From contig JBJEVY010000075.1 of the NCBI GenBank assembly GCA_051884775.1, forward strand, positions 1 through 62,333: a stretch of 62,333 nt of DNA, read 5' to 3'. A program made the translations under genes and the position numbers. This document shows, one piece after another, positions 4,089 to 61,999 of the stretch. Position 1 is the first letter of the stretch, and each line of letters opens with the position of its first letter. This DNA is from Candidatus Spyradenecus sp. Its GTDB lineage: Bacteria; Verrucomicrobiota; Kiritimatiellia; RFP12; DVOR01. Below the pieces are notes generated by a model. It was not told where the DNA came from. It did no database searches and was given only the letters and a program-made list of their open reading frames with translations.

Positions 4089-4180
4089 AGAGTCTCCTTG
4101 TGCCCCATACTATCCCACATTCCACCGCCGCTTGCCAATACCTGAATTGCGAAATTAGCTTGCTCTAATAGAAGGAGGTG

Positions 4181-4189
4181 TGATACACT
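4181..4189 (+). promoter_or_regulatory. Candidate extended -10 (TGaTACACT) for pflB
   Basis: Matches the TGnTAYAMT pattern recurring upstream of other genes in this window. It lies about 78 nt before the pflB ATG. Confidence 0.35.
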
Positions 4190-4266
4190 GTGGGCACTTT
4201 CTCGGCTTGATGAGCGGCAGCGGTCGCATGGGTCGAGAGTTCACACCGAAAAACGGAGGATACGAG

Positions 4267-11628: not shown

Positions 11629-11658
11629 AGTATAGCAAAAGGGGCGCTGGCGCGCCCC
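11629..11658 (-). promoter_or_regulatory. GC hairpin plus T-tract fused to extended -10 (TGCTATACT), 8 nt upstream of the ispE ATG
   Basis: Minus strand reads GGGGCGCGCCAGCGCCCC-TTTTGCTATACT-gcgcgggt-ATG. The same unit occurs before hisH. Confidence 0.5.
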
Positions 11659-11860
11659 GTGAACGGTGAGAGGTGAACGGTGAACGGTGAGGTGCTCGCT
11701 ACGCTCGCGTGAGGTGCCGCTGCGCGGCGTGAGGGTGGCGGCTGCGCCGCCGTGAGGGGGCGGCCTGGCGGAGCAGGCCGCTGCACAACGCTTACCGCCC
11801 TCACGCGCGCCCCTGCGCGCCTTTCCCCTTTTTGACATAACTCCTTCGCTTCGCTCGGAC
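11641..11860 (+). repeat. Composite intergenic cassette, copy 1 (heptads, GTGAGG-anchored hairpins, conserved TTGACATA..CTCCTTCGCTTCGCTCGGAC block)
   Basis: 11687-11771 is near-identical to 36877-36961. 11826-11870 is near-identical to 37061-37105. Heptads (GTGAACG/GTGAGAG) span 11659-11694. Confidence 0.85.
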
Positions 11861-12250
11861 TTGTGGTTGCTAACCTGCGTCCATTTCAGCGTGACAAGGC
11901 CTCCACAACCCTTTGTGCCCGCTGTGGTTGCTCATCCTGCGTGCGTTTCGGCGTGCTCTGTGCGTCTTTGTGGTTGCTAACCTGCGCGTATTTCGGCGTG
12001 CTCGGCGTGCGTTCCTTTGTGTTTCTTTGTGTTCTTTGTGGTTAAATCCTGCGTGTGTTTCGGCGTGACAAGGCCTCCACAACCCTTTGTGTTTCTTTGT
12101 GTTCTTTGTGGTTAAATCCTGCGTGCGTTTCGGCGTGACAAGGCCTCCACAACCCTTTGTGTTTCTTTGTGTTCTTTGTGGTTAATATCCTGCGTCTATT
12201 TCGGCGTGCTCGGCGTGCTCTGTGCGTCTTTGTGGTTGCTAACCTGCGCT
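11861..12250 (+). repeat. Family-A tandem array, about 70-bp unit
   Basis: Three near-identical 70-bp units start at 12015, 12085 and 12155 (ctttgtgtttctttgtgttctttgtggttaaatcctgcgtgYgtttcggcgtgacaaggcctccacaacc), flanked by degenerate units. Confidence 0.9.
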
Positions 12251-12263
12251 GCTTTGGGGCGCT

Positions 12264-16212: not shown

Positions 16213-17730
16213 TCACCTTTCGGCAAGGGTTAATGGGGTGTGGCCCTGACCGAAGTCGGGCCATTGGAGGAGCGTGTTGGGGTAGACCCGGCGCAGGTGC
16301 GCCAAGCGCTCGGCGCGGTCGGGCGCGGGGGCCAAGTCGGGAAAGTGAAGGGCATAGGTGTAGCCGGCCCAAGCGGCGAGCTTCGGCCCCTCGGCAGCGG
16401 GCGCAGCGCAGGGCGGGGAGAAGGGCCCCATCTCCAAGCCGCGGGGAACCTCAAGCCCGGCCTCGACCGCGAGATAGGTCTCCTGCGTCCAGACCTGGCG
16501 TTCGCCGCGCGCGGCGGCCCAGGTGCGCAGTTGCAGCCCCACGCGGCGCAGGGCCGCAAGGTCGCTCTCGGGCTTGAGGCGGATCCAAAAGCGATCTTGC
16601 GGCAGGGCCACCCAATCCTGAATGAGGGGCGAACCCAGGCAGGTGAGCGCAAGGGCGGCCGGAAGCATCACCTTGGCAAGCGCCAAGCGAAGCGAATCGA
16701 AGGGCAAGCGCGTGAAGGCAAAGGCCACCACCATCGCCAAAGGCAGGGTGGCGGGCACCTGATAATCCTCGTAGGGCACCGGCGCGCAGAGGTGCGCCAG
16801 CCCCAACGCCGCCGCGCACCAGAGCCACAGATTGGCCAGATGCTCGCGCTCGGAGGTTGCCCGCTTCAACGCCGGGCGCGCGGTCACCTGCAGCCACCCC
16901 AGCAAAATCATCCAAAAGGCGAGCAGCGGATTGAAGCGCAGCCACCGCGCCACGCACCCCGCACGCCCCAAGAGCCCCATCGGCTCGCGGGCGCTGTGGA
17001 AGCGAATCGCAGCCAGCAGCTCGGCCGGCCAGCCGATGAGTTCAGGCCCAAAGGCCGCCACCAGCCCAGCCGCCGCACCGGCACCAAACCAGAGCCACGC
17101 CCGGCGGCCCATCTGCGCGCGATGCCACCACAGCCACGCCGTCACCGCCGGCAAGAGCACGCCCATCGACAGGCGAATATCGGCCAGCAGGGCCAGAAGC
17201 GCACCGGCGGCCAACGCGCAGAGGGGGTCGAGCCCCGACCCATCGCGCCGCAACCCGGTGAGCAGCCGCAGCGCCCCGGCGATCCCCAGCGTGCAGAGCG
17301 CGTAGGTCTTGGGGATGACCGTGAAGTAGCCATACCACACATTCAGCCCCAGCAGGCACCAGAGCGTCACACGCGCAGCCCACCGTTCATCCAACCGCCG
17401 GCACCCGGAGGTGACGCAGCCATCGGCCAGAAAGAGCGCCGCCAGACCAAAGAGCGCCGTCAAGATTCGCCCGCCAAGCACACCGAGGCCCGACCACGCC
17501 CAGCCGAAGACCGCGTAGAGGAACGGGAAGAGAAGCCCTTGCGTGAAGAAGAAGTCGCGATGGGGCACCTCGCCGGCCATCATGCGCCGGGCCGCGTAGA
17601 GCCCCCACCCCTCATCTTGGTTGAGCGGCCCGAACCACACATTGAGCACGAGCATCACCACCGTCAGCCCCAGCGCGGCAAGGGCCCACCGCCGAAGCGG
17701 ATTTTGACCCGCCCCGGGTGGTGTTTTCAA
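16213..17730 (-). CDS. GT-C fold glycosyltransferase (family 39/83-like, PMT/ArnT type)
   Basis: First-loop acidic motif GPLNQDEGWGLYAARR and many TM helices. The stop lies 4 nt before the lnt start. The start is uncertain: TTG 17730, or ATG 18159 if the 198-bp repeats are translated. Confidence 0.65.
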   Translation of the reverse strand: MKTPPGAGQNPLRRWALAALGLTVVMLVLNVWFGPLNQDEGWGLYAARRMMAGEVPHRDFFFTQGLLFPFLYAVFGWAWSGLGVLGGRILTALFGLAALFLADGCVTSGCRRLDERWAARVTLWCLLGLNVWYGYFTVIPKTYALCTLGIAGALRLLTGLRRDGSGLDPLCALAAGALLALLADIRLSMGVLLPAVTAWLWWHRAQMGRRAWLWFGAGAAAGLVAAFGPELIGWPAELLAAIRFHSAREPMGLLGRAGCVARWLRFNPLLAFWMILLGWLQVTARPALKRATSEREHLANLWLWCAAALGLAHLCAPVPYEDYQVPATLPLAMVVAFAFTRLPFDSLRLALAKVMLPAALALTCLGSPLIQDWVALPQDRFWIRLKPESDLAALRRVGLQLRTWAAARGERQVWTQETYLAVEAGLEVPRGLEMGPFSPPCAAPAAEGPKLAAWAGYTYALHFPDLAPAPDRAERLAHLRRVYPNTLLQWPDFGQGHTPLTLAER

Positions 17731-18125
17731 TAGACGAGAGGCGATAGACGAGGAGGCTGTCGCCGGAGGTGGAGCGTCCGTCCGATGGACCGCCAGTTCC
17801 TCCGTCGCGGAACGCGCACTGTCGACTGTCGACTGTTGACTGTCGACTGGGCGCGCAGCGCCCCGCCCCGGGTTGACCTCGCATCCGCCCCGGGTTCGAG
17901 GTCGATCCGCCCCGGGTGAAGTTTTCGATAGGCAAGAGGCGGTAGGCGAGGAGGCTGTCGCCGGAGGTGGAGCATCCGTCCGATGGACCGCCAGTTCCTC
18001 CGTCGCGGAACGCGCACTGTCGACTGTCGACTGTTGACTGTCGACTGGGCGCGCATCGCCCCGCCCCGGGTTGACCTCGCATCCGCCCCGGGTTGGGGTC
18101 GGACTCGGGGCGGGTGCGTTTTCGG
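17711..18125. repeat. 198-bp tandem duplication (about 2.1 copies) upstream of, or in the 5' end of, the GT-C gene
   Basis: Unit 1 is 17711-17908 and unit 2 is 17909-18106, with a partial third. Each unit carries a GTCGACT heptad array (17819-17849, 18017-18047), a CCGTCGCGGAACGCGC core and three 22-bp-phased CCGCCCCGGGTT motifs. Confidence 0.9.
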
Positions 18126-20118: not shown

Positions 20119-20207
20119 GATGACGGAAGACGAATGACAGAGAACAGAGGCCTCGGCCGATCCGTCTCGGAACGTGTCCTGTCCTCTGTCCTCTGTCATC
20201 GGTCGTC
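20119..20207. repeat. Inverted pair of GATGACA/GAGGACA heptad arrays immediately upstream of the membrane-protein ATG
   Basis: Left arm 20119-20150 is gatgacggaagacgaatgacagagaacagagg. Right arm 20174-20207 is gtgtcctgtcctctgtcctctgtcatcggtcgtc. An 18-bp stem has 2 mismatches; the core is ccgtctcggaacgtg. Confidence 0.8.
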
Positions 20208-20230
20208 TGCGCGCGTCAGCGCGCATACTG

Positions 20231-21649: not shown

Positions 21650-21672
21650 CAATCACGCCCGCCCCGCGCACG

Positions 21673-21857
21673 CAACCACAGAGGCACGCAAAGCCACGCC
21701 GAAATAGACGCGGGGTGAGCAACCACAGAGAAGCGCAAAGACACGCAAAGAAGCACAAAGGGTTGTGGAGGCCTTGTCACGCCGAAATAGACGCAGGGAA
21801 GCAACCACAGAGAAGCACAGAGTTCACAAAGAAAGGCACGCAGAGGCACGCAGGGGT
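21673..21857 (-). repeat. Family-A repeat array, reverse orientation
   Basis: aaccacagag..cacaaagggttgtggaggccttgtcacgccgaaatagacgcaggg is the reverse complement of units at 12015-12224. Confidence 0.85.
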
Positions 21858-21935
21858 TATCGAAGCAGGTACATGAAGCGAAGCACATAGCCATTAAGAG
21901 TTTTGCTGTGGCCTGCTCCGCCAGGCCACCCGCAC

Positions 21936-22072
21936 GCGCCAAAGGCGCACCTCACGGCCCGAAGGGCCACCCTCACGCGCCGAAGGCGCACCTCACGGCC
22001 CGAAGGGCCACCCTCACGCGCCGAAGGCGCACCTCACGGCCCGAAGGGCCACCCTCACGCGCCGAAGGCACC
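21936..22072 (+). repeat. 41-bp tandem repeat (3.3 copies) of paired GAA-triloop hairpins
   Basis: The unit gcgccgaaggcgcacctcacggcccgaagggccaccctcac starts at 21936, 21977, 22018 and 22059. Confidence 0.9.
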
Positions 22073-30190: not shown

Positions 30191-30260
30191 GGGCCAGGCG
30201 CGGCCATTGGAGCGGCTGGGGTTTCTTGGAGTGCGGGGGCGTTGCCCCCCGCGCCGGGGG

Positions 30261-30288
30261 CTAGCAGCTAACAGCTAACCGCTAGCGG
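30261..30288 (-). repeat. Heptad array of the TAGC family (reverse orientation) overlapping the mnmA stop
   Basis: ctagcag ctaacag ctaaccg ctagcgg, the reverse complement of units in 35417-35535. Confidence 0.75.
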
Positions 30289-31379
30289 CTTTCTTCGGCG
30301 ATGGTGGCGCCGCCGAGGAGGTAGGCTCCGCGATAGAAGACGCAGGCTTGGCCTGGGGTGAGGAGGGCTTGGGGGGAGGCGGGGTGGACGGTGAGGTCCT
30401 CGGTGAGGGTGCAGTCGAAGGGGGGGTGGTGGTAGCGGGTGACGGCTTGGCAGGTGAGGGGGAAGGTGGGGGGGATGAGCCAGTGGGGGTCGCGGACGGC
30501 GAAGGCGGGGCGGAGGAGGGCTTCGCGGGGGCCGAGGGTGAGGGTGTTGGCGGCGCGGTCGAGGGCGACGACGAAGGCGCGCGAGCCGGTGGCGATGCCC
30601 AGGCCTTTGCGTTGGCCGCGGGTGTAGTTGGCCAGGCCGGTGTGGGTGCCGAGGCGGCGGCCGGCGGTATCGAGGATGGGGCCGGGGGTGGCGGTTTCTG
30701 GGTGGCGGCGGCGGAGTTCGGGGCGGTAGTCGCCACTGGGGAGGAAGCAGATGTCTTGGCTGCCGGCGGCGAGTTTGGCCTCGGGGATGGGGAGGCGCCA
30801 TTCGCGGGCGAGGGCGACGACTTGGGCGCGGGTCATGCCGGCGAGGGGGAAGTGGAGGTGGGGGAGGAGCTCGGGGGGGAGGGCGTAGAGGAAGTAGGAT
30901 TGGTCCTTGGCGGCATCGGTGGCGCAGCGGAGGGTGAGGCGGCCAGAGAGGGGCTCGCGGTCGAGGGCGACGTAGTGACCGGTGGCCATGGGGCCGCCGA
31001 TGGCGCGCTGGAGGAGGCCGAACTTGAGGCGGGGGTTGCACCAGGCGCAGGGATTGGGGGTCTGACCGGCGGCGTAGGCGGCAAAGAAGGGGGCGACCAC
31101 CTCGCGCTCGAAGGCGTCGCGCAGGTCGAGGAGGTGGAGGGGCACGCCCAGGGCAGCGGCGAGCTCGACCACGCCGGGGGCCGGTTCGGCCGAGCAGGTG
31201 AGCATGTGCCAGGCTTCCACCGCGTAGCCTTGGCGCTGGAGCAGCCGGACGCAGACGGCGGAATCGACCCCGCCGGAAAAAGCGACACCAATGGAAGGGA
31301 GCTCGCTACGCTCGCAGTGAACAGTCGACAGTCGACAGTCGACAGGGCTCGCTTCGCTCGCGCAGGGGAGGTCAGCCAT
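30282..31379 (-). CDS. mnmA: tRNA-specific 2-thiouridylase MnmA
   Basis: PP-loop GVAFSGGVDSAV plus NPCAWCN and DQSYFL motifs. GGAG SD lies 6 nt before the ATG at 31379. The first roughly 25 codons are encoded by repeat modules. Confidence 0.9.
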   Translation of the reverse strand: MADLPCASEASPVDCRLSTVHCERSELPSIGVAFSGGVDSAVCVRLLQRQGYAVEAWHMLTCSAEPAPGVVELAAALGVPLHLLDLRDAFEREVVAPFFAAYAAGQTPNPCAWCNPRLKFGLLQRAIGGPMATGHYVALDREPLSGRLTLRCATDAAKDQSYFLYALPPELLPHLHFPLAGMTRAQVVALAREWRLPIPEAKLAAGSQDICFLPSGDYRPELRRRHPETATPGPILDTAGRRLGTHTGLANYTRGQRKGLGIATGSRAFVVALDRAANTLTLGPREALLRPAFAVRDPHWLIPPTFPLTCQAVTRYHHPPFDCTLTEDLTVHPASPQALLTPGQACVFYRGAYLLGGATIAEESR

Positions 31380-31434
31380 CGGTCACTCCGTCGCGGCACG
31401 CGCCTGTCGACTGTTCACTGTCAACTGACGACTC
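31317..31434. repeat. Inverted pair of GTCGACA/GTGAACA heptad arrays bracketing the mnmA start codon
   Basis: Left arm is 31317-31345 and right arm is 31404-31434. The core contains ccgtcgcggcacgcgc (31388-31403), the SD and the ATG. GCTCGCTACGCTCGC lies at 31302-31316. Confidence 0.85.
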
Positions 31435-32401: not shown

Positions 32402-33276
32402 GCCATCAGCCCCATCAGCTTTTGGGTGAGTTTGGCGGCGGTGAAGGTGGCGTGGTGGAGGCCGGGAATGGGGGCAAGCTCGACCACATCGCAGCCGACG
32501 ATGTCGTGGGAGGAGGCGATTTCGCGCAGAATGAAGAGGGCCGAATACCAGAGCAGACCGCCGGGGACAGGCGTGCCCGTGGCGGGCATCACCGCGGGGT
32601 CCAGACCGTCGACATCGAAGGTGACGTAGACGCGCTTGGGGAAGCCTTTGGGCAGGATGGGATCGGGCGGGCCCTTGAGGGCAAGGGTCTCGGCATCCAT
32701 CGCGAAGAGGGACTTCTTGTTGGCGGCGCGGTAGGCGGCCTCATCGGCACAGTAGGCGCGGGTGGCGAACTGGGCGAGGGGGAAGCCGAGCTCGTGGCAG
32801 CGGCGCAGGACGCAGGCGTGGGAGAGGGGCGAGCCTTCGTAGCTATCGCGCAGGTCGGCGTGGGCATCGAAGTGGACAATGCCAATCTCCTCGCCGCGGA
32901 CCTTGTAGGCCAAGAGCGCGCCGAGGGTGACGGTGTGCTCGCCGCCGAGGACGACCGGGCGGGCCCCGCAATCGAGCGCCTCGCCGACGGCCTTCTCGAT
33001 GGCGCGCAGCCAGGCTTCGGGGTCCTTGGCCTTGGCGGCGGTGGGCTTGACGGCCGGGCGGGTGTAAATGCCCCCGGCGCAGGGCTCTTCGCCGGCCTCG
33101 TAGGCCTCGAGCTGGTCGGAGGCTTCCAGAATAGCCGCCGGGCCATTGGCCGCGCCGGCGCCGTAGGAGACCGAGAGCTCCATCGGCACGGGGATCACAT
33201 GAAAGCGCGCGGCCTCCTTGTCGGCCGGTTCGTGTTCCGAGCCCAAGAAGGGCTGCTTATTCTGCTTGCTTGCCAT
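32398..33276 (-). CDS. speB: Agmatinase (ureohydrolase family)
   Basis: GGEHTV, HFDAHADL, VTFDVDGLDP and CDVVELAP Mn-ligand motifs. The start was chosen at MASKQNK (33276). Confidence 0.85.
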   Translation of the reverse strand: MASKQNKQPFLGSEHEPADKEAARFHVIPVPMELSVSYGAGAANGPAAILEASDQLEAYEAGEEPCAGGIYTRPAVKPTAAKAKDPEAWLRAIEKAVGEALDCGARPVVLGGEHTVTLGALLAYKVRGEEIGIVHFDAHADLRDSYEGSPLSHACVLRRCHELGFPLAQFATRAYCADEAAYRAANKKSLFAMDAETLALKGPPDPILPKGFPKRVYVTFDVDGLDPAVMPATGTPVPGGLLWYSALFILREIASSHDIVGCDVVELAPIPGLHHATFTAAKLTQKLMGLMA

Positions 33277-35410
33277 GGTCTGTTGCCTCCACCGGGATTG
33301 CCACACACGCATCGCCCTCGCAGGTCGGCGCTTCGGCCGCCGGGGTTTCCGCCGCCGCGCAGCGTTGACGCGGGGAGCAGGGGCAGAAGAACCACCACCC
33401 GGCCGCGACCGCCGCGCCGAGCAGCAGCACCGCCAGCGCGGTCCAGAGGGCCTTGTGGCTCACACGGGCCATCGGCGGGGCGGGGACGAAGCGCTTGCCC
33501 ACATAGCAGGCCTTTTGGGTGTAGTAGCGCCCGAGGGCGGCGGTCAGGCCAATGCGGCGGTTGACGGCCCAGCCCGAGGCGTTGAGAATCGGCGCGAGGT
33601 CGCGCGCACGCAGCTTGAGCCAGGTGAGGATAACGCTGGGCACGGAGACGGCCAAGATGAGCCCCACCACCACCAGCGCGGTCTTCCAGAGCGGCGTGCT
33701 GGTGAGGGCGGCCATCAACCCGGTCACGGCCGTGGCCACAAAGGAGAGGGCGATGCCCAGGGTCGCCACCGAGGCCATGGCCACGCCACCGCCGGGCGCC
33801 GCGGGCTTGTCCCCTTCGGCAGCGGCCTTCCCGGCGCTCTCGGCTTGGGCGGCGAGGGCAGCGGTCGCGGCCTCGTGCTTGCCGGCGAAGGTCTTGCGAA
33901 TGGCACCGGCGAAGGCATCGGCCACCTTGCGCCAGGGGGTGAAGAAGGCCTCGGTCAGGCTCATCGGGTTGGGCTCAAGGGTGGTGAGCGTGGCCTCCCA
34001 ATCGCGCCCTTCCAGATCGTAGAAGATGCCGTTGCGCCCAACGGCGAGGGTGGCGGCCGATCCGGCGGTAAAGACCGCGCAGATGGTGCGCTTTTCGCCG
34101 GTGGCCGGACGCGAGAGGGCGCAGTAGGCCAGGCAGCACTGCGAGGCCTTGGCCTGGGCGGCGTGGGCGGCGGCCGCTTGGTCGATGGGGAAGCAGAGCG
34201 AGCAGGCGCGGCCATCGAGGTAGAGCGTGCCCACCTGGTAGAGGGCGCCGGGCTGCGGGGGATAAAGTGCCTCGGTGTTCACGAAGTTGCGCAGGAAGCT
34301 TAGCAACCCGGTGCGCAGCGTCAGCAGACGGCAGAGGTCGCCATACGCGGCGGCCAGAGGCGCGCGCTTGGCATCGGCGGCAATGGCGCGCGTGAAGGCT
34401 TCGGCCACGGCGGGCTCGGCGGCCAGCGCGAGGACCTGCTCATCGAGCGCGGCGAAGCAGTCAGTCCCGGCGGGCTTGGCGGCCTGCCAGGCTTCGAGCG
34501 GGGCGACCTCGGCAGCGAGTTGCTGCCAGGCGGCCTCGGTGAGTGCCGGCGCCTTAGCCCAGGCCACGATGGGGGCCATCTGCGCAGCATAGAAGGGATT
34601 GAGGCGCCCGCCCTCCAGGGGCAACGCGCCCTCGGCCGTCGGCTCCAGCGCGAGCGGCGCGGCGGCCAACTCTTCGGCGGACTTGGGATTGGGGCGGCCC
34701 TCGGCGGCAGCGGGGTTGTAGCGCACCAGCTTGGCAGCGGCGAAGAAGGCCTCGATGGGCGCGCGCATCGCCGTTACGGCGGCGGCCAACTCCGGCGAAA
34801 GGGCGGCAACGGGCTGGGCGGCGCGCCAGACCTTGTAGGCTTCGAGCGCGGCAGCAAAGGCGGTCAGGTTCTCGGCCGAGAGCCCTTGCTTGCCGTCGAC
34901 CCCAGCCGTGCCGCCGGTGACGGCCACAACGGCCTCGCCCACCGGGGCAAACTTGCTGCCGGCGGCCTCAGGGGCCACCACGCCATCGCCATTCTCGGCG
35001 GCAGCCTTGAAGCCGGCGAAGGCCGCTTCCATCGCCTCGGGGGCCAGACGCTCCCCGGCGGCAACGAGGGTGCCAAAGAGCTCGGCCAGCGGCGCGCCCT
35101 CGGGCGTATTGGCGGCAATTTCAGCAAGGGAGAGCCCCGCCTCGCCGGCGAAGAGGCAATCGAAGGAGGCCAAGCGCGGCTTGAGCCAATCAATGGCCCC
35201 GAGCACTTCGGCCACGCGCACGCGCCCATCGTGATCGGTATCAAGCGCTTCGGCCACGGCGCGACCGCGGGGTCCGAGCCCCTTCACGGGGCAGGAGAGC
35301 GCCAGCCAGTAGGGCTTGGGCAACTCAGCGAGATGGGCAATATCCTCGCCCGAACGCAGGCGCACCTGCACGGTCCGGGCAACAGTACTGAAAGCAAAGG
35401 CGTGGCTCAT
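33257..35410 (-). CDS. Hypothetical 717-aa protein with N-terminal EF-hand loop, Ala-rich helical region and C-terminal TM helices
   Basis: Canonical EF-hand loop DTDHDGRVRVAE. Hydrophobic segments occur near the C-terminus, followed by a Cys-rich tail. The 3' end overlaps the speB start by 20 nt. Confidence 0.6.
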   Translation of the reverse strand: MSHAFAFSTVARTVQVRLRSGEDIAHLAELPKPYWLALSCPVKGLGPRGRAVAEALDTDHDGRVRVAEVLGAIDWLKPRLASFDCLFAGEAGLSLAEIAANTPEGAPLAELFGTLVAAGERLAPEAMEAAFAGFKAAAENGDGVVAPEAAGSKFAPVGEAVVAVTGGTAGVDGKQGLSAENLTAFAAALEAYKVWRAAQPVAALSPELAAAVTAMRAPIEAFFAAAKLVRYNPAAAEGRPNPKSAEELAAAPLALEPTAEGALPLEGGRLNPFYAAQMAPIVAWAKAPALTEAAWQQLAAEVAPLEAWQAAKPAGTDCFAALDEQVLALAAEPAVAEAFTRAIAADAKRAPLAAAYGDLCRLLTLRTGLLSFLRNFVNTEALYPPQPGALYQVGTLYLDGRACSLCFPIDQAAAAHAAQAKASQCCLAYCALSRPATGEKRTICAVFTAGSAATLAVGRNGIFYDLEGRDWEATLTTLEPNPMSLTEAFFTPWRKVADAFAGAIRKTFAGKHEAATAALAAQAESAGKAAAEGDKPAAPGGGVAMASVATLGIALSFVATAVTGLMAALTSTPLWKTALVVVGLILAVSVPSVILTWLKLRARDLAPILNASGWAVNRRIGLTAALGRYYTQKACYVGKRFVPAPPMARVSHKALWTALAVLLLGAAVAAGWWFFCPCSPRQRCAAAETPAAEAPTCEGDACVAIPVEATDHGKQAE

Positions 35411-35416
35411 AGGAAT

Positions 35417-35535
35417 GTTAGCGGTTAGCTGTTAGCTGTTAGCGGTTAGCTGTTAGCGGATAGCTGTTAGCGGATAGCTGTTAGCAGATAGCAGATAGCC
35501 GTTAGCGGATAGCTGTTGGCGGATAGCAGTTAGCG
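35417..35535 (+). repeat. 17 uninterrupted heptads (GTTAGCG/GTTAGCT/GATAGCT) filling the whole intergenic spacer
   Basis: gttagcg gttagct gttagct gttagcg gttagct gttagcg gatagct gttagcg gatagct gttagca gatagca gatagcc gttagcg gatagct gttggcg gatagca gttagcg, with no indel over 119 nt. Confidence 0.95.
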
Positions 35536-36708
35536 CTTGGCGCGAAGGCGCTCGCAGAAGCGGGCGAAGCGGGCGAGGCCTTCCTCGATGTTCTCCATCG
35601 AGCAGGCGTAGCTCAGGCGGACGCAGCGGTCGTTGCCAAAGGCGATGCCCGGCACCACGGCCACGTACTCCTCCTCCAGGAGGCGCGTGGCGAAGGTGAG
35701 CGAATCGAGACCGAAGGAGGCAATGTTCGGGAAGACATAGAAGGCGCCCTCGGGCTTGGGGCACTTGATGCCCTCAATGGCGGAGATGAGCTCGTAGATG
35801 CGGTCGCGCCGCTGGGTGAAGGCGGCGACCATCTTGGCGACGTCCGGCGCGGCCTCCTTGAGCGCAGCCACGGCGCCCCACTGCGCGAAGGTGTTCGGCG
35901 CGGAGGCCATGTGGCTCTGCAGCGAGGAGAGCGCCTTGGCGAAGGGCTTGGGGGCGGCGGCGTAGCCCAGACGCCAGCCGGTCATCGCGAAGGTCTTGGA
36001 GAAGCCGTTGACGGTGATGGTGTGGTCGTAGAAGTCGGGCCCGAAGGAGGCCATCGAGACCTGCGGCACGCCGCCGTAGGCCATCTTCTCGTAGATTTCG
36101 TCGGAGACCATCCACAGGTCGTGCTTCAGGGCCACGGTGCCCAGGGCCTTGAGCTGCTCGGGGCTGTACATCATGCCGGTGGGATTGGAGGGCGAGTTGA
36201 TGACCACGGCCACCGTGCGCGGGGTGATGGCCGCCTCCAGCTGCTCGGGGCTCATCAAGAAGCCGCTCTCCACGCGCGTCTCCACAAAGACCGGCACGCC
36301 GCCGGCCACCTTCACCATCTCGGGATAGGAGAGCCAGAAGGGCGTGGGGATGATGACCTCGTCGCCAGGGTTGATGAGCGTCTGAAAGACCTGCGCGAGC
36401 GCCGGCTTACCGCCATTGGCCACCACCACCTGCGAGGGCTCGTAGTGAACGCCATTCTCGCGCGCCAACTTCTCGCAAATCGCCTCGCGCAATTCGGGCA
36501 GACCCGCGGCCGCCACATAGCGCGTCTTGTTCTGCGCCAGGGCCTCCTCGCACGCGCGCTTAATGCAATCGGGGGTGTTGAAGTCCGGCTCACCGGCGGC
36601 AAAGGCGCAAACAGCCACGCCCTTGGCTTTCAACTCTGCGGCCTTGCTGGAAATGGCCAACGTGGCAGACGGCGCAATGGCCGCGACAGTCCTATTCAAG
36701 TCCTTCAT
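35530..36708 (-). CDS. Class I pyridoxal-phosphate-dependent (aspartate-type) aminotransferase
   Basis: AAGEPDF, NSPSNPTG and FSKTFAMTGWRLGY (PLP-lysine) motifs. The start is MKDLNRT at 36708. The 666-aa ORF extension is repeat DNA. Confidence 0.9.
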   Translation of the reverse strand: MKDLNRTVAAIAPSATLAISSKAAELKAKGVAVCAFAAGEPDFNTPDCIKRACEEALAQNKTRYVAAAGLPELREAICEKLARENGVHYEPSQVVVANGGKPALAQVFQTLINPGDEVIIPTPFWLSYPEMVKVAGGVPVFVETRVESGFLMSPEQLEAAITPRTVAVVINSPSNPTGMMYSPEQLKALGTVALKHDLWMVSDEIYEKMAYGGVPQVSMASFGPDFYDHTITVNGFSKTFAMTGWRLGYAAAPKPFAKALSSLQSHMASAPNTFAQWGAVAALKEAAPDVAKMVAAFTQRRDRIYELISAIEGIKCPKPEGAFYVFPNIASFGLDSLTFATRLLEEEYVAVVPGIAFGNDRCVRLSYACSMENIEEGLARFARFCERLRAKR

Positions 36709-36771: not shown

Positions 36772-36780
36772 ATTGTAGCA
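36772..36780 (-). promoter_or_regulatory. Candidate extended -10 (TGCTACAAT) for the aminotransferase gene
   Basis: Minus strand reads ..GGGGCGCGCAGCGCCCC..gttgTGCTACAATgcgc, about 60 nt upstream of the ATG. AGAAGGA SD nearer the start. Confidence 0.5.
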
Positions 36781-36802: not shown

Positions 36803-37105
36803 AAGGGGCGCTGCGCGCCCCGTGAACGGTGAACGGTGAACGGTGAACGGTGAACGGTGAGAGGTGAGAGGTGAACGGTGAGGTGCTCGCTACGCTCGCG
36901 TGAGGTGCCGTTGCGCGGCGTGAGGGTGGCGGCTATGCCGCCGTGAGGGGCGGCCTGGCGGGCCGTTGGGTGCGCCCCAGCGCCCCCGGATTTCCCGGAT
37001 TTTCCGGACTTTCCGGACTTTCCGGGTCCCTGCGTGCCTTCCCCACCCTGCGCAACCTTTACCCTTTTTGACATAGCTCCTTCGCTTCGCTCGGACTTGT
37101 GCTTC
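36803..37105 (+). repeat. Composite intergenic cassette, copy 2
   Basis: Nine heptads at 36822-36885 (GTGAACG x5, GTGAGAG x2 ...). 36877-36961 is near-identical to 11687-11771. A 9-nt repeat ccggayttt x5 lies at 36986-37029. 37061-37105 matches 11826-11870. A short family-A remnant spans 37095-37150. Confidence 0.85.
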
Positions 37106-37159
37106 TTTGCGTGTCTTTGCGCTTCTTTGTGGTTGCTCATCCTGCGTGCCTTTGCGGCA

Positions 37160-39217
37160 TTAGCGCTGGGCGAGGAGGGCGGTGGCGCGGGCGAGTTCGG
37201 GGTCGGAGCCGACGAGGACAAGGCTGTCGCCGGCGGCGAGGCGGGTGTCGCGGCCGGGGGAGACATTGAGCTTGCCGCCGCGGGCGGTGACGGAGATGAC
37301 GGCCGCGCCGGTGGTGCCGCGTAGGTTGAGTTCGCCGAGGGTTTTGCCGACCGCGGCGCTCTCGCGCGGGAGGAGGAAGGTCTCGGTGTGGACGGCGAGG
37401 ATGGCGCCGAGGGTGACAGGATCTTCCGGCGGCAGGGCATTGAGGTCGAAGGCTTGGGAGAGGAGGTTGTGCGAGGCGTTGTATTCGGCGCGCAGGCGCT
37501 TGGAGTGGCGCGTACCGAAGGCCAAGGCAAAGAGGACCAGCGGGGCGAGCAGCAGGAAGTTGCTCACAAAGCCCGAACAGAGGATGGCGGCATAGACGAT
37601 GATGCCCGCCCAACCGATCGCGCGCAGGATGGTGCGGATAAAGCGGCGCACGCGCGTGAGGCCGCTCACCTCGCCGGCAAAGGCGTCTTCAGCCACATGG
37701 CGGGCGATCTCGGCCCAGGTGTGCCAAGCGGCCCAGAAGACGGGCGTGGTGATGAGGAGCGCGCCCAGGCAGCAGAGGAGGCGGCCGGCCGGAAAACCGG
37801 GCCAGGGGAGCGCATCATCGAGTTGCGCGAGGAAGGTGGCCACGGGGCGCAACCGCGAGAGGGCGTGGACGCCGGCAAAGAGGATGGCGCAGCACGCGAG
37901 GTCGATGCCCAGGAAGATGGCATGGCCGCGCAGGTGCGCGGCGAGGGAGGAGCCGGACTCGGTGCGGCGCGCGGAGAGGGCGGTGAGCCAGCGGCGATAC
38001 CAGTGGAAGGTCTCGCGGGCGCGCGGACCAAAACAGCGGGCGAGGCCATTGTAGAGGCGGTCGGAGCCGCGCAGGAGGTAGGGGTTGGTGGCGGTGCAGA
38101 GGAGCGCCACGCCGATGGCGATTTGGTAGAGCGGGCGCTGCGAGAGCCCCTGGGCCATCGCCAGGGCGGCAATGATGAAGGAGAACTCGGCCACTTGGCC
38201 CATCCCCAGCCCCACCTTGAAGGCATCGCGCGGACGCTCGCCCACCAGGGTGCAGGCCACGGTGTTATTCACGGCCTTAAGCAGAATCATCACCCCGGTA
38301 ATCAGCAGAATGACCCCGGCATTCTCCCAAAGCACGCGCGGCTGGAGTTGCAAGCCCACCGAGACAAAGAAGACCGCCGCAAAGAGGTTGGTGACCGGAT
38401 GGACAATCCGCTCGATCCGCCGCCGGGCGCGCGCCTCGGCCACCACCGCCCCGGCCAGGAATGCCCCCACCACCAGCGAGAGCCCCAACCCATTCTGCGC
38501 CAGGCACGCGATGGCAAAGCAGACGCCCAGGGCCGCCAGCAGCACCAGTTCGTCATCGAAGCGCTCGGCCGCCCAATTCATCAGCCGCGGCACCAGGAGC
38601 AATCCAAAGACGATTGCCCCCACCAAAAAGAGCAAGAGCACGCCAATCTGCCGAGCCACCGTCAGCACGGTGGCCCAGGCCGCCCCCTCCCCGCCGCCGC
38701 CCACGCCGCCCAGTACCGCGATGAGCAAGATGGCCAAAATATCCTCAATCAGCGCAATGGCGAAGGTGCTATCCGAGAAGCGCTTGCCCAGCCAACCGAG
38801 GCTCTCAAGGGTCTTCGCAGCGATGGAGGTGGAGCTGTCGCACAAAATCAGCCCCAACAGGAAGCCCTCCAGGTTCCCCCACCCCAACGCCTTGCCCAGG
38901 CAAAAGCCGCCGAGCACCATAAAGGCCACATCCCAAATCGCCGGGAAGACGACCCCCGCGCCCATCTGCCGCACCTTACGGAAGGAGAAGCCCAGGCCAA
39001 TGGAGAACATCAGGAACATCACACCCAGATCCGAGAGCATCCGGATGTTCTGCTCATTCTGAATGAGTGCCGGTCCGGCGTGGGGCCCGGCCAACACCCC
39101 GGCCAGAATGTACCCCACCGTCAGCGGCAGACGAAAGCGCGAAAAGAGCAGCCCCACCGCCGCCGCTACCGCAATCACAATGCTCAAATCCGCGAAAAAG
39201 AGTGTGGCGCTATCCAT
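37160..39217 (-). CDS. Cation:proton antiporter (CPA2/Kef-like) with extra membrane domain and C-terminal TrkA-C (RCK_C) domain
   Basis: Na+/H+ exchanger-type N-terminus (LPLTVGYILAGVLAGPH). C-terminus is GKTLGELNLRGTTGAAVISV...GDSLVLVG. GAGGA SD before the ATG at 39217. Confidence 0.8.
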   Translation of the reverse strand: MDSATLFFADLSIVIAVAAAVGLLFSRFRLPLTVGYILAGVLAGPHAGPALIQNEQNIRMLSDLGVMFLMFSIGLGFSFRKVRQMGAGVVFPAIWDVAFMVLGGFCLGKALGWGNLEGFLLGLILCDSSTSIAAKTLESLGWLGKRFSDSTFAIALIEDILAILLIAVLGGVGGGGEGAAWATVLTVARQIGVLLLFLVGAIVFGLLLVPRLMNWAAERFDDELVLLAALGVCFAIACLAQNGLGLSLVVGAFLAGAVVAEARARRRIERIVHPVTNLFAAVFFVSVGLQLQPRVLWENAGVILLITGVMILLKAVNNTVACTLVGERPRDAFKVGLGMGQVAEFSFIIAALAMAQGLSQRPLYQIAIGVALLCTATNPYLLRGSDRLYNGLARCFGPRARETFHWYRRWLTALSARRTESGSSLAAHLRGHAIFLGIDLACCAILFAGVHALSRLRPVATFLAQLDDALPWPGFPAGRLLCCLGALLITTPVFWAAWHTWAEIARHVAEDAFAGEVSGLTRVRRFIRTILRAIGWAGIIVYAAILCSGFVSNFLLLAPLVLFALAFGTRHSKRLRAEYNASHNLLSQAFDLNALPPEDPVTLGAILAVHTETFLLPRESAAVGKTLGELNLRGTTGAAVISVTARGGKLNVSPGRDTRLAAGDSLVLVGSDPELARATALLAQR

Positions 39218-39247
39218 AGTTCATCCTCTAAGCTCGCTACGCTCGCA

Positions 39248-39459
39248 GCGGACAGCCGACAGCTGACAGCTGACAGCGCTGGCGCTCGATGTGCTTAACC
39301 CGTCTGAGCCGTTTGAGATTGAGCGGACAGCGGACAGCTGACAGCGCGCACTGCGTGCGACGGGCGGGCTCTTGGTCTGTGAAATGTGGTTTCATCGTTT
39401 CTTCCGTTTGCTTATCCGTCGCGCAAGCGGCTGTCCGCTGTCGGCTGTCCGCTGTCGGC
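39248..39459. repeat. GCGGACA/GCTGACA heptad arrays in direct (39248-39278, 39323-39346) and inverted (39427-39459) orientation around a conserved core
   Basis: The core shares cccgtctgagccg (39299-39311) and flanks with 2075-2156. 39323-39346 pairs with 39427-39459 over 21 bp with 1 mismatch. GCTCGCTACGCTCGC lies at 39232-39246. Confidence 0.85.
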
Positions 39460-39519
39460 TTGCTTCATTTGCTTCCCTCGCCGCCATTCCTTGCCTCGGG
39501 CGCAACGCCGGCGTCCCCC

Positions 39520-42405: not shown

Positions 42406-42493
42406 GCCAACCTCGGGCGGGTGCGCGGCCAACCTCGGGCGGGTGCGTGGCCAACCTCGGGCGGGTGCGCGGCCAACCTCGGGCGGGTGCGTG
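42406..42493 (+). repeat. 22-bp tandem repeat x4 (GCCAACCTCGGGCGGGTGCGYG)
   Basis: Units start at 42406, 42428, 42450 and 42472. On the minus strand they lie about 30-120 nt upstream of the PEP-CTERM -35. Confidence 0.9.
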
Positions 42494-42646
42494 GCCATTG
42501 GAGGGGCCGGGGGTGCCGGGCGGGTTTTCTCGGGGTGCGGGGGCGTTGCCCCCCGCGCAGGTGCGTGCCGGGGGTTTAGGGGCAGGGCCCCCAACGGCCT
42601 GGGCGGCGAGGCGCGTAAGCGCATCGCCGCGCGGTGTGCTGGCGAG

Positions 42647-46700: not shown

Positions 46701-46759
46701 CGCATACCGCAATGGTCCAGTGCGCCCGCCGCTGTCATCTCTCCTCTGTCATCTGTCAT
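43718..46759 (-). CDS. Three-domain glycosyltransferase fusion (GT4-like, GT2-like, GT25-like)
   Basis: GT4: LFVLPSVFEGYGCVYAEAAACGIP. GT2: LILPAYRAARWL..CLAVDDGSPD..GFLDADD. GT25-like: YACFINLDRAPGR..GCALSHQRAY..LEDD. The ATG at 46759 has a GAGGAG SD 7 nt upstream; an alternative ATG is at 46705. Confidence 0.75.
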   Translation of the reverse strand: MTDDRGEMTAAGALDHCGMRPVDCAQPPRYLIVTQHFPSPESWRGSFVFDFVCELLRAGGYRVSVFVPGPGADYTLPLPAPLQGELTVHRFSRRALRGFILPFLFARRNCAAFLQRLSALGIDPAEVAICHAHGSPMVEYPLALKALNPRLRTLLHHHSLDDSGLAQGLLRHFAPHQRLLHRAFAKRHAQIDEHVFISRAAERAFRALPDGRWTLWGDYRRAMRCLRGLRPFTLRAASVLPNGVDPARFHPAPAAEHPFTLGCVANFVPLKDHLTLLRALRLAAPDLPAGWRLRCIGTGPTRRACERFIRRTPALRGHVTFEPERDHSALPDFFRALDLFVLPSVFEGYGCVYAEAAACGIPFLACAGQGTDDWVPPGHPSLVPPRDPAALAERLRQFLRAPWSPPAPPTLAESIGPWLARLSAPTPEPEPCDLILPAYRAARWLPDLLASLRAQSSPRWRCLAVDDGSPDATGCLLDAAARADRRFRILHTRNGGVSRARNRALDRATAPWIGFLDADDTLRPGYLAAFEALRMRHPQADLLRLRMTSLRHENYPPNFPASGCASGEALPATAWTLCAQTGWVFLYQVRRATLGSLRFAPGYAYKEDALFYSALIPHLRALAWDNLAAYDYRLTPGSALRRPRRTAELCRAFREATALWERTGRTDLGARAMTDFCWGSLTEYLRDHASESPAAIAELWREVAALTRSPLWREGVLERKFLPFLHHLLRTGNAWPLRTFTYALERWRWLRHALHCARRTWYAPPFPLAAAPLRHTLPYACFINLDRAPGRLAAMRAQLRGFPCERLRAVDGIPPGARVARFRFWLANARRLLPAEVGCALSHQRAYARFLESSATCALMLEDDICLDRARLDAALAYARTHLPADRPALWLLHGCSLTEGTPEPADFTLRPTAPRAWSAAAYLLNRPAARLLQRANAAVCVLADDWDFFRALGLEVCWLRPFPCTPSRVASSIIPPPRPRRANWAWYRALWHLRHALGSRLVRLFTPKPSCR

Positions 46760-46777
46760 CCGTCATCTCCTCTCACC
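46731..46777 (-). repeat. GATGACA/GAGGAGA heptad array spanning the ung stop, the SD and the start codon of the glycosyltransferase fusion
   Basis: Minus strand reads TGA-gaggaga tgacgga tgacaga tgacaga ggagaga tgacagc. The repeat itself contains the GAGGAG and ATG elements. Confidence 0.8.
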
Positions 46778-49278: not shown

Positions 49279-49323
49279 ATTGTAGCAAAAGCGCGCTGCG
49301 CGCGCGTGAACGGTGAACGGTGG
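49279..49323 (-). promoter_or_regulatory. Heptads plus GC hairpin plus TTTTGCTACAAT located 6 nt upstream of the hisH ATG (possible leaderless start)
   Basis: Minus strand reads CACCGTTCACCGTTCAC-GCGCGCGCAGCGCGC-TTTTGCTACAAT-agccct-ATG. Confidence 0.5.
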
Positions 49324-52339: not shown

Positions 52340-52348
52340 AGTGTAGCA
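52340..52348 (-). promoter_or_regulatory. Candidate extended -10 (TGCTACACT)
   Basis: About 70 nt upstream of the ATG at 52270. Confidence 0.4.
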
Positions 52349-54052: not shown

Positions 54053-54061
54053 AGTATAGCA
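54053..54061 (-). promoter_or_regulatory. Candidate extended -10 (TGCTATACT) for the AAA-ATPase gene
   Basis: 18 nt upstream of the ATG at 54034. Confidence 0.45.
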
Positions 54062-54203: not shown

Positions 54204-54212
54204 GGGAACCAT

Positions 54213-54260
54213 TAAGACTGAGTCTTATTGCAATTAAGAGTTAGTCTTATTGCAATTAAG
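54213..54260. repeat. AT-rich palindrome (TAAGACT-g-AGTCTTA) and 18-nt direct repeat AGTCTTATTGCAATTAAG x2
   Basis: Palindrome at 54213-54227. Direct repeats at 54221-54238 and 54243-54260 (22-bp period). Confidence 0.7.
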
Positions 54261-54361
54261 TCTGGCTCTTAATTATCGGACCCGGGGCTGGGCGGAATTC
54301 GCCCCGGGCGAGAAGGCGGTTTCCGCCGCGCGCGGGTTGGGGCCCGAGCGGCGAGTTCCTG

Positions 54362-57724: not shown

Positions 57725-57733
57725 ATTGTAGCA
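57725..57733 (-). promoter_or_regulatory. Candidate extended -10 (TGCTACAAT) for rpe
   Basis: Minus strand reads GCGAGCGACGCTCGC-gaattgTGCTACAAT, about 30 nt upstream of the ATG. GGAAGGAAG SD. Confidence 0.5.
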
Positions 57734-58734: not shown

Positions 58735-58809
58735 GAGTGAACCGTGAGAGGTGAACGATGAGAGGTGAACGATGAGAGGTGAACGATGAGAGGTGAACGG
58801 TGAACGGTC
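58735..58809 (+). repeat. Heptad array with 14-nt super-period (AGGTGAACGATGAG x3, then GTGAACG x2)
   Basis: gagtgaaccgtgagaggtgaacgatgagaggtgaacgatgagaggtgaacgatgagaggtgaacggtgaacggtcg. Confidence 0.9.
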
Positions 58810-58843: not shown

Positions 58844-59530
58844 TTAACTCCGCGGCAGCAGGCGCACCAGGGCCGCCCCGCGCTCGGCAATCGGCAGGCG
58901 GATGCGCGCGTCCCAACCTACCGCTTCGTCGCGCTGCTCAGGGAGGCCATCCGCCGCCGAGAGCACATCCATCGTGGCGAAGGGCCGCTCCCCGGGCAAC
59001 GCCTCAATTAGGTCCGCCGCGCGGAAGGTCAGCACCGCCGGCTTCCCGCACGGCAGCACGAAGGCGCCCATCGTGTAGCTGCCATCGACTTCGCGCAGGC
59101 CAAACTGCAAGAACCACCCCGGCTCGCCCCGCCGGCACCAACGCGCCTCCGGCGCGCAACGCAACATCCGCAGCAGCGCGGCAAAGGTTTCGCGATAGAG
59201 TGGCGAGAAGCCGCCCGAGGCGTCCAACATCCACGCCCCCTGCGGACAGAGCGGCATCTCCCGGAAGGCTGCGAAGAGCACCGCCTCGGCGCTCTCCAAC
59301 ACGCGCGGCGAGGCTACGGCCTCGGGGTCCGCCGCCTGGCAGAGCAGCGCGGCCGGCGAAGGGACCTGCCGCTCGACCACGCACCCATCGGCGCGCCAGT
59401 AGCGCAGCGCCGTCCGCCCCTGCGCCGTGAAGTAGAGATTGACGGGCAAGCGCTCGCGGGCATCCAAAACTGCCCCCGTGCCTGCCCGTCGCGGAACGCG
59501 CCCTGTCGACTGTCGGCTGTCGACTGTCAT
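58844..59530 (-). CDS. Hypothetical protein (228 aa)
   Basis: The ORF follows the S1-domain gene stop by 3 nt. The first 10 codons (MTVDSRQSTG) are a heptad array. No motif was recognised and the start is uncertain. Confidence 0.45.
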   Translation of the reverse strand: MTVDSRQSTGRVPRRAGTGAVLDARERLPVNLYFTAQGRTALRYWRADGCVVERQVPSPAALLCQAADPEAVASPRVLESAEAVLFAAFREMPLCPQGAWMLDASGGFSPLYRETFAALLRMLRCAPEARWCRRGEPGWFLQFGLREVDGSYTMGAFVLPCGKPAVLTFRAADLIEALPGERPFATMDVLSAADGLPEQRDEAVGWDARIRLPIAERGAALVRLLPRS

Positions 59531-60778: not shown

Positions 60779-60787
60779 ATTGTAGCA
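60779..60787 (-). promoter_or_regulatory. Candidate extended -10 (TGTGCTACAAT) for the S1-domain gene
   Basis: About 45 nt upstream of the ATG at 60735. Confidence 0.5.
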
Positions 60788-61692: not shown

Positions 61693-61990
61693 GAGGTGAA
61701 CGGTGAGAGGTGCTCGCTGCGCTTGCGTGAGGGTGGCGGCGGCGCCGCCGAGAGGTGCGCCTACGGCGCGTGAGGTGGCCCTGCGGGCCGTGAGGCGCTC
61801 GCTGCCGCTCGCGAGAGGGGCACCTTCGGCGCGCCGGGGGCCACGCCCCCATGCCCCCGCCCACGAGCAAGCTCATGGGCACGCCGGGCCGCGCCGCCTT
61901 TGGCGGACGCGTGGGGTTGCCGAGGACGGCGGCACACAGAACACAGAACGCCCGGCCTAGATAGCCCTTCAGGCAGCAGACCCACCACAC
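61693..61990 (+). repeat. Heptads (61693-61712) followed by GTGAGG-anchored GC hairpin modules
   Basis: gaggtgaacggtgagaggtgctcgctgcgcttgcgtgagggtggcggcggcgccgcc... parallels 11683-11771 and 36877-36961. Confidence 0.75.
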
Positions 61991-61999
61991 CGCGCCCTT

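Follow-up and report, generated by a model that had tools for sequence, protein, structure and literature searches.

Between the genes for a class I/II aminotransferase and a conserved 717-aa protein, a 62,333-nt contig of Candidatus Spyradenecus sp. (GenBank JBJEVY010000075.1; this whole stretch is called the window below) has a spacer made almost entirely of 17 tandem copies of a 7-nt unit. Our preferred explanation, which we hold to be probable rather than settled, is that this heptad array is a heptanucleotide 'long simple sequence repeat' (long SSR) that owes its origin and its changes in length to replication slippage within an operon junction, is transcribed by read-through and is tolerated as a leader that lacks a Shine–Dalgarno (SD) sequence. 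The array is specific to one high-GC clade of Ca. Spyradenecus that is prone to period-7 arrays in intergenic DNA. It shows each of the long-SSR traits that were tested: contiguous units, a non-coding location, an excess of period 7 and copy-number polymorphism with block duplications.

According to this explanation, the array would have arisen from sequence at the aminotransferase stop codon, which it now supplies. In filling the spacer, with only 5 nt left to the next ATG, it would have displaced the SD that is found in more distant relatives. The junction itself probably belongs to an old operon, comprising the genes for the aminotransferase, the 717-aa protein, an arginase-family protein and a 322-aa protein, followed by mnmA. 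Read-through from the aminotransferase promoter would transcribe the 717-aa gene. Its translation would begin without an SD, from a leader with little G (15%), no start codons and, by prediction, no structure. Because the G-poor sense RNA is unstructured, the array could be tolerated as such a leader rather than being required.

Anatomy of the heptad array

The array and the cistrons on either side of it are arranged as follows, in the order of transcription:

35530 to 36702, minus strand: aminotransferase class I/II, the upstream cistron (390 aa from MKDLNR; Pfam PF00155, E 9e-76)
35530 to 35532, minus strand: TAA stop of the aminotransferase, within heptad 1 (GC-TAA-CT)
35416 to 35534, minus strand: heptad array, GCTA[A/T]CN in gene sense, 17 in-register units without gaps
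35411 to 35415, minus strand: pyrimidine linker UUCCU, the 5 nt from the last heptad to the ATG, with no SD
33257 to 35410, minus strand: conserved 717-aa protein, the downstream cistron, with C-terminal hydrophobic segments and no Pfam family

Read in gene sense, the units are:

units 1 to 9: GCTAACT, GCTATCC, GCCAACA, GCTATCC, GCTAACG, GCTATCT, GCTATCT, GCTAACA, GCTATCC
units 10 to 17: GCTAACA, GCTATCC, GCTAACA, GCTAACC, GCTAACA, GCTAACA, GCTAACC, GCTAACA, followed by UUCCU and the ATG

On the plus strand the units read G[TA]TAGCN and, bar the 5-nt linker, they make up the whole intercistronic spacer. Tandem Repeats Finder places the array at 35417-35535 with period 7, 17.0 copies, 0% indels and a score of 119, and also offers periods of 21 (score 133) and 35 (score 131). 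The original prediction, made from the letters of the window, had described 17 in-register heptads with no indel that overlap the aminotransferase stop codon; the repeat finder and the reading of individual units both bear this out. It had also put the array 6 nt from the ATG (35410-35408), which is true in the phase it used and becomes 5 nt (UUCCU) in the GCTAWCN phase. The claim that this is the longest and cleanest array of the window stands for length, among heptad arrays, and fails for cleanness: adjacent units are 76% identical here, and 100% identical in several shorter arrays.

A two-unit pattern, GCTAWCNGCTAWC, has 19 matches in the window when up to one mismatch is allowed (0.41 expected). 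All are confined to the main array and to 30260-30286, which therefore confirms the coordinates, the register and the predicted inverted recurrence at the mnmA stop:

30260 to 30288, plus strand: second GCTAWCN-family array of about four units in the opposite orientation, overlapping the mnmA stop; the mRNA reads GUUAGCN

The main array lies between a stop and a start codon and is non-coding. Neither strand can be read through it, because every A-type unit contains a sense TAA and every unit an antisense TAG. As a leader it is free of ATG, GTG and TTG, and it ends an upstream open reading frame (ORF) in any frame. Two other kinds of element are ruled out by its layout: a CRISPR array has repeats of 23-50 nt and unique spacers, and the units here are 7 nt and contiguous; a DNA cruciform would call for inverted repeats, and none were found within 35300-35650.

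The same junction in relatives

The close relatives of the window share about 90% nucleotide identity with it. In eleven distinct assemblies among them, the junction carries the GCTAWCN family, always ending 5 nt before the ATG, with no SD and with pyrimidine linkers that read CCCCC, ACCCC, ATCCC or ACCCT. The number of units differs as follows:

window: 17 units
L016 and L017: 14 units
L140 and L141: 12 units and a 5-nt out-of-register insert
L001: 11 units
L002: 11 units
L142: 10 units
L018: 6 units
L003 and L019: 5 units
L146: 5 units, then a C9 run
L143, L144 and L145: 3 units

The array is identical wherever the same protein sequence recurs in independent samples (L016/L017, L140/L141, L143-145 and L003/L019). 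The original prediction had proposed unit counts in related strains as a check; they do vary and, since relatives have anything from 3 to 17 units, the number is not invariant.

Further away, the array is missing. In L013 and L014 (71% protein identity, 69% GC) the two genes are separated by a 42-nt C-rich spacer with neither an array nor an SD, and relatives at 50-64% identity have spacers of 15-40 nt with SD-like sequences and no array. Gene order is conserved in these array-less relatives (spacers of 15-42 nt). As the distant relatives have short spacers without heptads, the array is a derived, clade-specific filling of an operon junction that was ancestrally short. The L013 aminotransferase stops two codons earlier, at a TAA of its own; because the stop at that position has been lost, the aminotransferase ORF of the window runs on into heptad 1, the source of its TAA.

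The leader before the ATG of the 717-aa gene is C-rich in several of these genomes. Poly-C runs (C8-C9) occur there in L146 (about 1480-1500) and L142 (about 1490-1500), and the 42-nt C-rich tract of L013 (2958-3000) stands directly before the ATG. From this comparison, the leader may already have been C-rich and SD-less before the heptad array arose.

Slippage signatures and unit constraint

Three perfect tandem duplications, of one, two and three units, lie within the array:

35416 to 35457, minus strand: 21-nt (3-unit) duplication, units 12-14 repeated as units 15-17
35458 to 35485, minus strand: 14-nt (2-unit) duplication, GCTAACA-GCTATCC twice, units 8-9 repeated as units 10-11
35486 to 35499, minus strand: 7-nt duplication, GCTATCT twice, units 6-7

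A repeat finder detected spacings of 14 and 21 nt in the array, whose identity is higher at a period of 14 (0.876) than at one of 7 (0.768). With the three duplications taken out, 11 units are left, which is the count in L001 and L002. What sets L016 apart from L001 is chiefly a single 3-unit block; a few units toward the 3' end are substituted as well. Gains and losses of whole blocks in this manner are what replication slippage would be expected to leave behind, and slippage is probably how the array was made.

The counts of 17, 14, 11, 11 and 5, all equal to 2 modulo 3, had raised the idea of changes in 21-nt steps. Orthologues with 10, 6 and 3 units refute it, and the metagenome GCTAWCN arrays show no modulo-3 preference. 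The array is not an SSR of the phase-variation type either, as it is neither inside an ORF nor between promoter elements: because it sits between a stop and a start codon, a change of 7 nt alters neither a reading frame nor the spacing of a promoter. The units are unevenly conserved. In six orthologous arrays, G1, C2 and A4 are invariant (64 of 64 units), and position 7 is nearly random.

Expression signals and RNA structure

The original prediction held that the spacer leaves no room for an SD, a promoter or a terminator. Consensus scans of the gene strand agree, with no promoter-like and no terminator-like site in or near the array, and the linker is not an SD. The genome's own candidate promoter motif, the extended -10-like TGCTAYAMT, has seven matches in the window (0.39 expected), all on the minus strand and upstream of genes:

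11629-11637, 36772-36780, 49279-49287, 52340-52348, 54053-54061, 57725-57733 and 60779-60787, minus strand: TGCTAYAMT
36772 to 36780, minus strand: TGCTACAAT, the copy nearest upstream of the array, before the aminotransferase gene, conserved in L001-L003

CGTTCAC heptads and a GC-rich hairpin often come before the motif. It has no copy between 36772 and the 717-aa gene, so that the nearest lies about 1.2 kb upstream of the array. Read-through from the aminotransferase gene, one of two expression routes named in the original prediction, fits with this position and with the adjacency of the two genes in all Kiritimatiellia relatives examined; the two are probably co-transcribed. The other route, in which the array would itself be the expression signal, finds no support.

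The sense RNA is predicted to be structureless. For positions 35381-35560 the minimum free energy (MFE) is -33.9 kcal/mol (z +1.5), and 191 of 200 shuffled sequences fold at least as well. The antisense RNA of the array region is predicted to form a long hairpin that contains G-U pairs (MFE -76.1 kcal/mol, z -4.7), and the sense RNA of the inverted array at the mnmA stop a hairpin as well (MFE -38.5 kcal/mol, z -2.26). At the gathering score, Rfam has no match at the array; its matches in the window are two tRNAs only. An intrinsic terminator or a structured RNA element at the array is ruled out by the unstructured sense RNA, the lack of a terminator-like site and the lack of an Rfam match. 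In the sense RNA of the array, C makes up 34% and G 15%. The strand as a whole averages the same C content (0.34), and the array's C-minus-G excess is at the 87th percentile of 78-nt segments on its strand. Initiation on this leader would have to be SD-independent.

Period 7 across the genome and in metagenomes

The main array is one case of a general tendency. The window holds 16 period-7 arrays, against at most one for each other period from 4 to 12. The same dominance is seen in L001-L003, and no such arrays occur in relatives of 50% GC. The window's heptads include the families CGTTCAC/CTCTCAC, GACAGNN (as CGACAGT, GACAGCG and ATGACAG) and GCTAWCN, and the genome has at least five families. 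Among close relatives, turnover is quick in other intergenic regions, where orthologous places hold arrays built of different units.

To see where else the family occurs, metagenome contigs were scanned for exact matches to four consecutive GCTAWCN units. Such matches are present in at least 120 unrelated contigs, in both orientations, with a GC content of 29-73% and 4-27 units among the matches listed. The listed contigs contain 212 period-7 arrays, against at most five of any other period; because period 7 dominates the contigs that carry it, the GCTAWCN family lives in 'heptad-rich' genomes generally. The family had been singled out in the original prediction as distinct from the others. 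The array turns out to be one of many heptad arrays in the genome, and GCTAWCN arrays are common in unrelated metagenome contigs.

Orientation relative to genes was also considered. A rule with the unstructured GCUAAC in sense before starts and the hairpin-forming GUUAGC in sense after stops fits both GCTAWCN arrays of the window, and is not significant in 122 metagenome arrays, for which ORF calls were crude. With the same crude calls, and among the matches listed, the genes flanking the arrays are in sense in 69 cases and antisense in 93, and A-type arrays upstream of starts are in sense in 9 cases and antisense in 14. A first ORF-based pass at orientation was confounded, as the stop codons of the arrays themselves end spurious ORFs. 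The coding ORFs of the window are almost all on the minus strand (the sole clear plus-strand gene is at 4159-6504). Because of this, the orientation of an array relative to transcription cannot be separated within the contig from its orientation relative to replication.

Weighing the alternatives

Several observations weigh against a slippage product that is only tolerated. The array stops exactly 5 nt before the ATG in every close relative, and another array of the window (58737-58808) ends 4 nt before an ATG without an SD, in an architecture like that of the main array; the two observations hint at a role in translation initiation. The constraint on G1, C2 and A4 exceeds the expectation from simple neutral decay. 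Moreover, the identical counts in independent samples carrying the same protein do not support rapid variation in unit number, so slippage at this site is probably not fast. Finally, the unit counts derive from short-read metagenome assemblies, and the L012 contig, which encodes exactly the protein of the window, breaks inside the array, as commonly happens to repeats when short reads are assembled.

A functional translation-initiation element, in our view unlikely but the main rival, would account for some of this. The array would substitute for the SD as a ribosome standby or landing platform, or as the site of an RNA-binding protein (S1, Csp or CsrA-like), and the number of units would adjust how much 717-aa protein is made relative to aminotransferase. 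The fixed 5-nt distance without an SD in all eleven orthologous assemblies agrees with such a role, as do the SD of the array-less distant relatives, the fact that the sense orientation is the unstructured one, the invariant core with its free position 7 and the second array (58737-58808), which abuts its SD-less ATG at +4. However, the relative at 71% identity manages with a C-rich, SD-less spacer, so that the array is not needed for SD-less initiation, and anything from 3 to 17 units is tolerated. Nor do the metagenome arrays prefer one orientation toward starts (the 9 against 14 given above, among the matches listed and with crude calls), and for TAACTGA, the analogous heptamer discussed below, the corresponding role is only a proposal. 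A broader version, which we regard as rather doubtful, sees the arrays not as passive products of slippage but as the output of a period-7-specific system in scattered 'heptad-rich' bacteria, where a nucleic-acid-binding factor would bind the G1/C2/A4 core, arrays would load ribosomes in place of an SD and unit number would set the translation ratio of the cistrons. Other readings place the function in transcription. Rho needs roughly 70-80 nt of rut RNA, and the untranslated 119 nt could serve as a rut-like loading site, with array length setting the polarity between the aminotransferase and the genes downstream. The RNA is G-poor (34% C, 15% G over 119 nt), unstructured and ribosome-free between stop and start, and the longer arrays exceed the length that Rho needs, though the alleles of 3-6 units do not. 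Yet its C content is average for the strand, and the genes downstream lie in a conserved cluster of one direction, where junctions overlap or are short. With a C-minus-G excess no higher than the 87th percentile, a rut-like site is possible without being compelling, and on balance we judge it improbable.

That the heptads are DNA iterons for a cooperative binding protein, in the way of the omega repressor of pSM19035 or of ToxR/H-NS at ctxAB, strikes us as very unlikely. The contiguous 7-bp units without spacers, the conserved core with one free position and the presence of GCTAWCN in the genome in both orientations would all suit an operator, and the ctxAB heptads likewise vary in number between strains (10.1101/2021.05.14.444153). 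But there is no promoter in or beside the array to regulate and no candidate binding protein encoded beside it; at least five heptad families in one genome would need many cognate proteins, and GCTAWCN is spread over unrelated metagenome contigs with GC contents of 29-73% (among the matches listed). An internal promoter for the 717-aa gene is exceedingly improbable. The T-GCTAAC and T-GCTATC junctions do resemble the first five bases of TGCTAYAMT, and TAACAT in the last unit matches TATAAT at four of six positions. No unit, though, combines the TG with a T at the last position of the -10 hexamer, the array matches neither TGCTAYAMT nor the consensus, and TAACAT is only 4 nt from the ATG and is not conserved (relatives read TAACAC or TAACGA). 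As for an assembly artefact, in the array or in its length, we can give it hardly any credence. All counts come from metagenome assemblies and a short-read contig with an identical protein (L012) ends inside the array; against this, eleven further assemblies, made in separate projects, have the same family at this position, equal counts were recovered independently (L016/L017, L140/L141, L143-145, L003/L019) and 119 nt is shorter than typical reads of 150 nt.

Other repeats in the window

Several heptad arrays of other families lie close to genes. The array at 58737-58808 has about ten CGTTCAC/CTCTCAT units (gene sense) and extends from a small hairpin after a stop codon to near the ATG. Arrays of ATGACAG, AGGACAG and CGACAGT at 46732-46768, 20179-20209 and 59503-59528 overlap or directly follow candidate start codons; these are possible contingency loci, where unit changes could shift the start or the frame.

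Two short sequences accompany the arrays. The 15-mer GCGAGCGNAGCGAGC has six matches in the window (0.17 expected), each directly bordering a heptad array, and its reverse complement occurs right after the aminotransferase stop in the lineage of L001 (about 5897-5911) and L016 (about 666-680). It may be an anchor or seed element of arrays. GCGT[T/G]CCGCGACGG is found immediately 3' of GACAGNN arrays at five places, all on the minus strand, which suggests that array and motif form a composite dispersed element. In addition, some arrays are paired with an inverted array of their own family at a distance of 60-110 nt. A similar sequence (GGCTCAGACGGG...AGCGCCAGC) lies inside the pairs at 2043/2156 and 39246-39346, and such pairs look like MITE-like or long-stem RNA modules. 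A dispersed family of repeats, each about 70 nt long, has CACAAAGAA in abundance, includes GGTTGTGGAGGCCTTGTCACGCCGAAA and occurs in both orientations and in up to 2.8 tandem copies. The positions of these and of further repeats are:

11694-11708, 31301-31315, 31347-31361, 36885-36899, 39232-39246 and 61712-61726, minus strand: 15-mer GCGAGCGNAGCGAGC
17802-17815, 18000-18013, 31388-31401 and 59486-59499 (exact) and 20162-20175 (degenerate), minus strand: GCGT[T/G]CCGCGACGG
2043-2073 with 2156-2185, 31321-31345 with 31404-31433, 39322-39346 with 39428-39460, and in L018 1331-1353 with about 1430: inverted array pairs
11860-12260, 21660-21900 (inverted), 37100-37180 and 61990-62333: intergenic repeat family of about 70 nt
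17709-18101: tandem repeat of 198 nt, two copies, 94% identical, containing heptad arrays
21924-22069: tandem repeat of 41 nt, 3.6 copies, 98%
42406-42497: tandem repeat of 22 nt, 4.2 copies, 95%
54211-54271: AT-rich repeat of 22 nt, 2.8 copies, whose halves TTAAGACT/AGTCTTAA are palindromic, shortly upstream of a gene

Genes around the junction

The 390-aa version of the aminotransferase is also the one called in relatives. Exact-sequence look-up of the protein, in versions of 400 aa and 390 aa, returned no record. The 717-aa protein had been named an EF-hand protein in the original prediction, a label that did not hold up: Pfam gives no family at E<=0.01 and, as the downstream protein is without one, the name rests only on a DxDxDG-like loop seen by eye at residues 57-68. 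Of its 459 homologues, the best 120 have no listed Pfam domain and, with few exceptions, go by the name 'hypothetical'. Its relatives in the genome collection are metagenome-assembled genomes labelled Candidatus Spyradenecus, Lentisphaeraceae or Kiritimatiellia.

The 717-aa gene is followed downstream by an arginase-family gene, a 322-aa gene that has no family and then mnmA, whose identity is upheld by Pfam (PF03054, PF20259 and PF20258 on that ORF). The order of aminotransferase, 717-aa homologue, arginase, unknown gene and mnmA is kept even at 64% protein identity, and the genes downstream of the array all run in one direction, in a conserved cluster whose junctions overlap or are short. 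On the other side of the aminotransferase, L003 has an RNase P RNA gene (RF00010, 216 bits; 2616-2971) between it and a Na+/H+ exchanger gene. Rfam has no RNase P match anywhere in the window. The orthologous place in the window, 36986-37025, holds a 9-nt array, GGAAAGTCC, in 4.4 copies, which resembles the conserved GGAAAGUCCGG of RNase P RNA.

Comparison with known heptamer repeats

Tandem heptamers have been described in bacteria before, and the array can be set against several classes. The most general is that of the long SSRs, with units of 5-11 nt. In the account of Mrazek (2007) given in PMC4679880, heptanucleotides are the most abundant class of long SSR in most of the prokaryotic genomes surveyed, and polymerase slippage is the proposed cause. 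As far as that account describes the class, the array shares with it non-coding tandem 7-nt units far beyond chance, a sporadic and lineage-specific abundance and a preference for period 7. It differs in filling a complete operon junction, where it replaces the context of the stop codon and the SD, and in its host, since Kiritimatiellia is not among the taxa that the summary names.

The closest precedent is the heptamer TAACTGA, found as intergenic direct repeats in marine Beggiatoaceae, some Cyanobacteria and Bacteroidetes (MacGregor 2015, PMC4679880). There, 132 of 170 sets are directed at a start codon that lacks a ribosome-binding site (RBS), and the largest class ends 1 nt upstream of it; 14 sets overlap an upstream ORF's end, the repeats put stops in all forward frames and each unit has one G (PMC4679880). 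A translational role via S1, Csp or CsrA has been proposed, and no more than proposed (PMC4679880). The two have in common head-to-tail heptamers without spacers, one G per sense unit, stops in all forward frames and interspersed variant heptamers. Both can lie a few nucleotides upstream of an RBS-less start (5 nt from the ATG here) and overlap the end of the upstream ORF. However, the unit here is GCTA[A/T]CN and not TAACTGA, the two sharing only the tetranucleotide TAAC. There are 17 units, compared with 2-6 in the Beggiatoaceae genome (and up to 43 in other species), the host belongs to the Kiritimatiellota, and it has several heptad families rather than one. The forward bias toward starts is also missing for GCTAWCN in metagenomes, among the matches listed and with crude gene calls, and the window has only two arrays of the family, in opposite orientations.

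Other heptamers resemble the array less closely. The GGGNATC and GGGGA(C/T)T heptamers of Xanthomonas and Nostoc are G-rich, form G-quadruplexes and prefer four units (Rehm et al. 2015, PMC4692102). They comprise 2-26 units, are mostly transcribed and lie preferentially between co-directional ORFs, less than 50 bp from starts or stops (PMC4692102). Like the arrays of the window they are heptameric, genome-wide and over-represented in non-coding DNA, but with one G per sense unit the array cannot form a G-quadruplex. The STRR heptamers of heterocystous cyanobacteria reportedly have the units CCCCAGT, TTGGTCA and CAACAGT, and several intergenic families are said to coexist in one genome, as they do here. 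The CGACAGT family of the window even includes CAACAGT units (17818-17849). Still, the phylum is different and, going by the units reported, GCTAWCN is not a classical STRR unit. A last group consists of operator arrays. The omega repressor of pSM19035 is said to bind contiguous 7-bp heptads. In Vibrio cholerae, ToxR and H-NS bind TTTTGAT heptads that lie in the promoter of ctxAB and vary in number between strains (10.1101/2021.05.14.444153). The likeness lies in contiguous 7-bp units whose number differs between strains or sites; the difference is that operator arrays stand in promoters and are bound by known regulators, whereas no promoter-like site is found here.

A literature search on GCTAWCN-type unit strings found no paper that mentions them, and one pairing Kiritimatiellae, Kiritimatiellota or Spyradenecus with tandem repeats or heptamers gave no report among its top ten results, in none of which a taxon term appeared. 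The array adds a gut lineage of the PVC superphylum (Ca. Spyradenecus, Kiritimatiellia) to the short list of heptad-rich bacteria. It also provides an unusually clean natural series at one junction, from a short spacer with an SD through a C-rich, SD-less spacer to 3 to 17 heptads, which could be used to test the effect of an array on translation or polarity, and to ask for the cause of the preference for period 7. Should the array be no more than a product of slippage that is tolerated, its value is mainly descriptive. For gene callers and assemblers it is a caution, because contigs break within it and it supplies the stop of the upstream gene. Altogether, the array fits the generic heptanucleotide class on every feature tested, and fits the TAACTGA type in architecture, not in unit sequence. 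It points to no new mechanism and belongs to the bacterial heptanucleotide repeats that have already been described.

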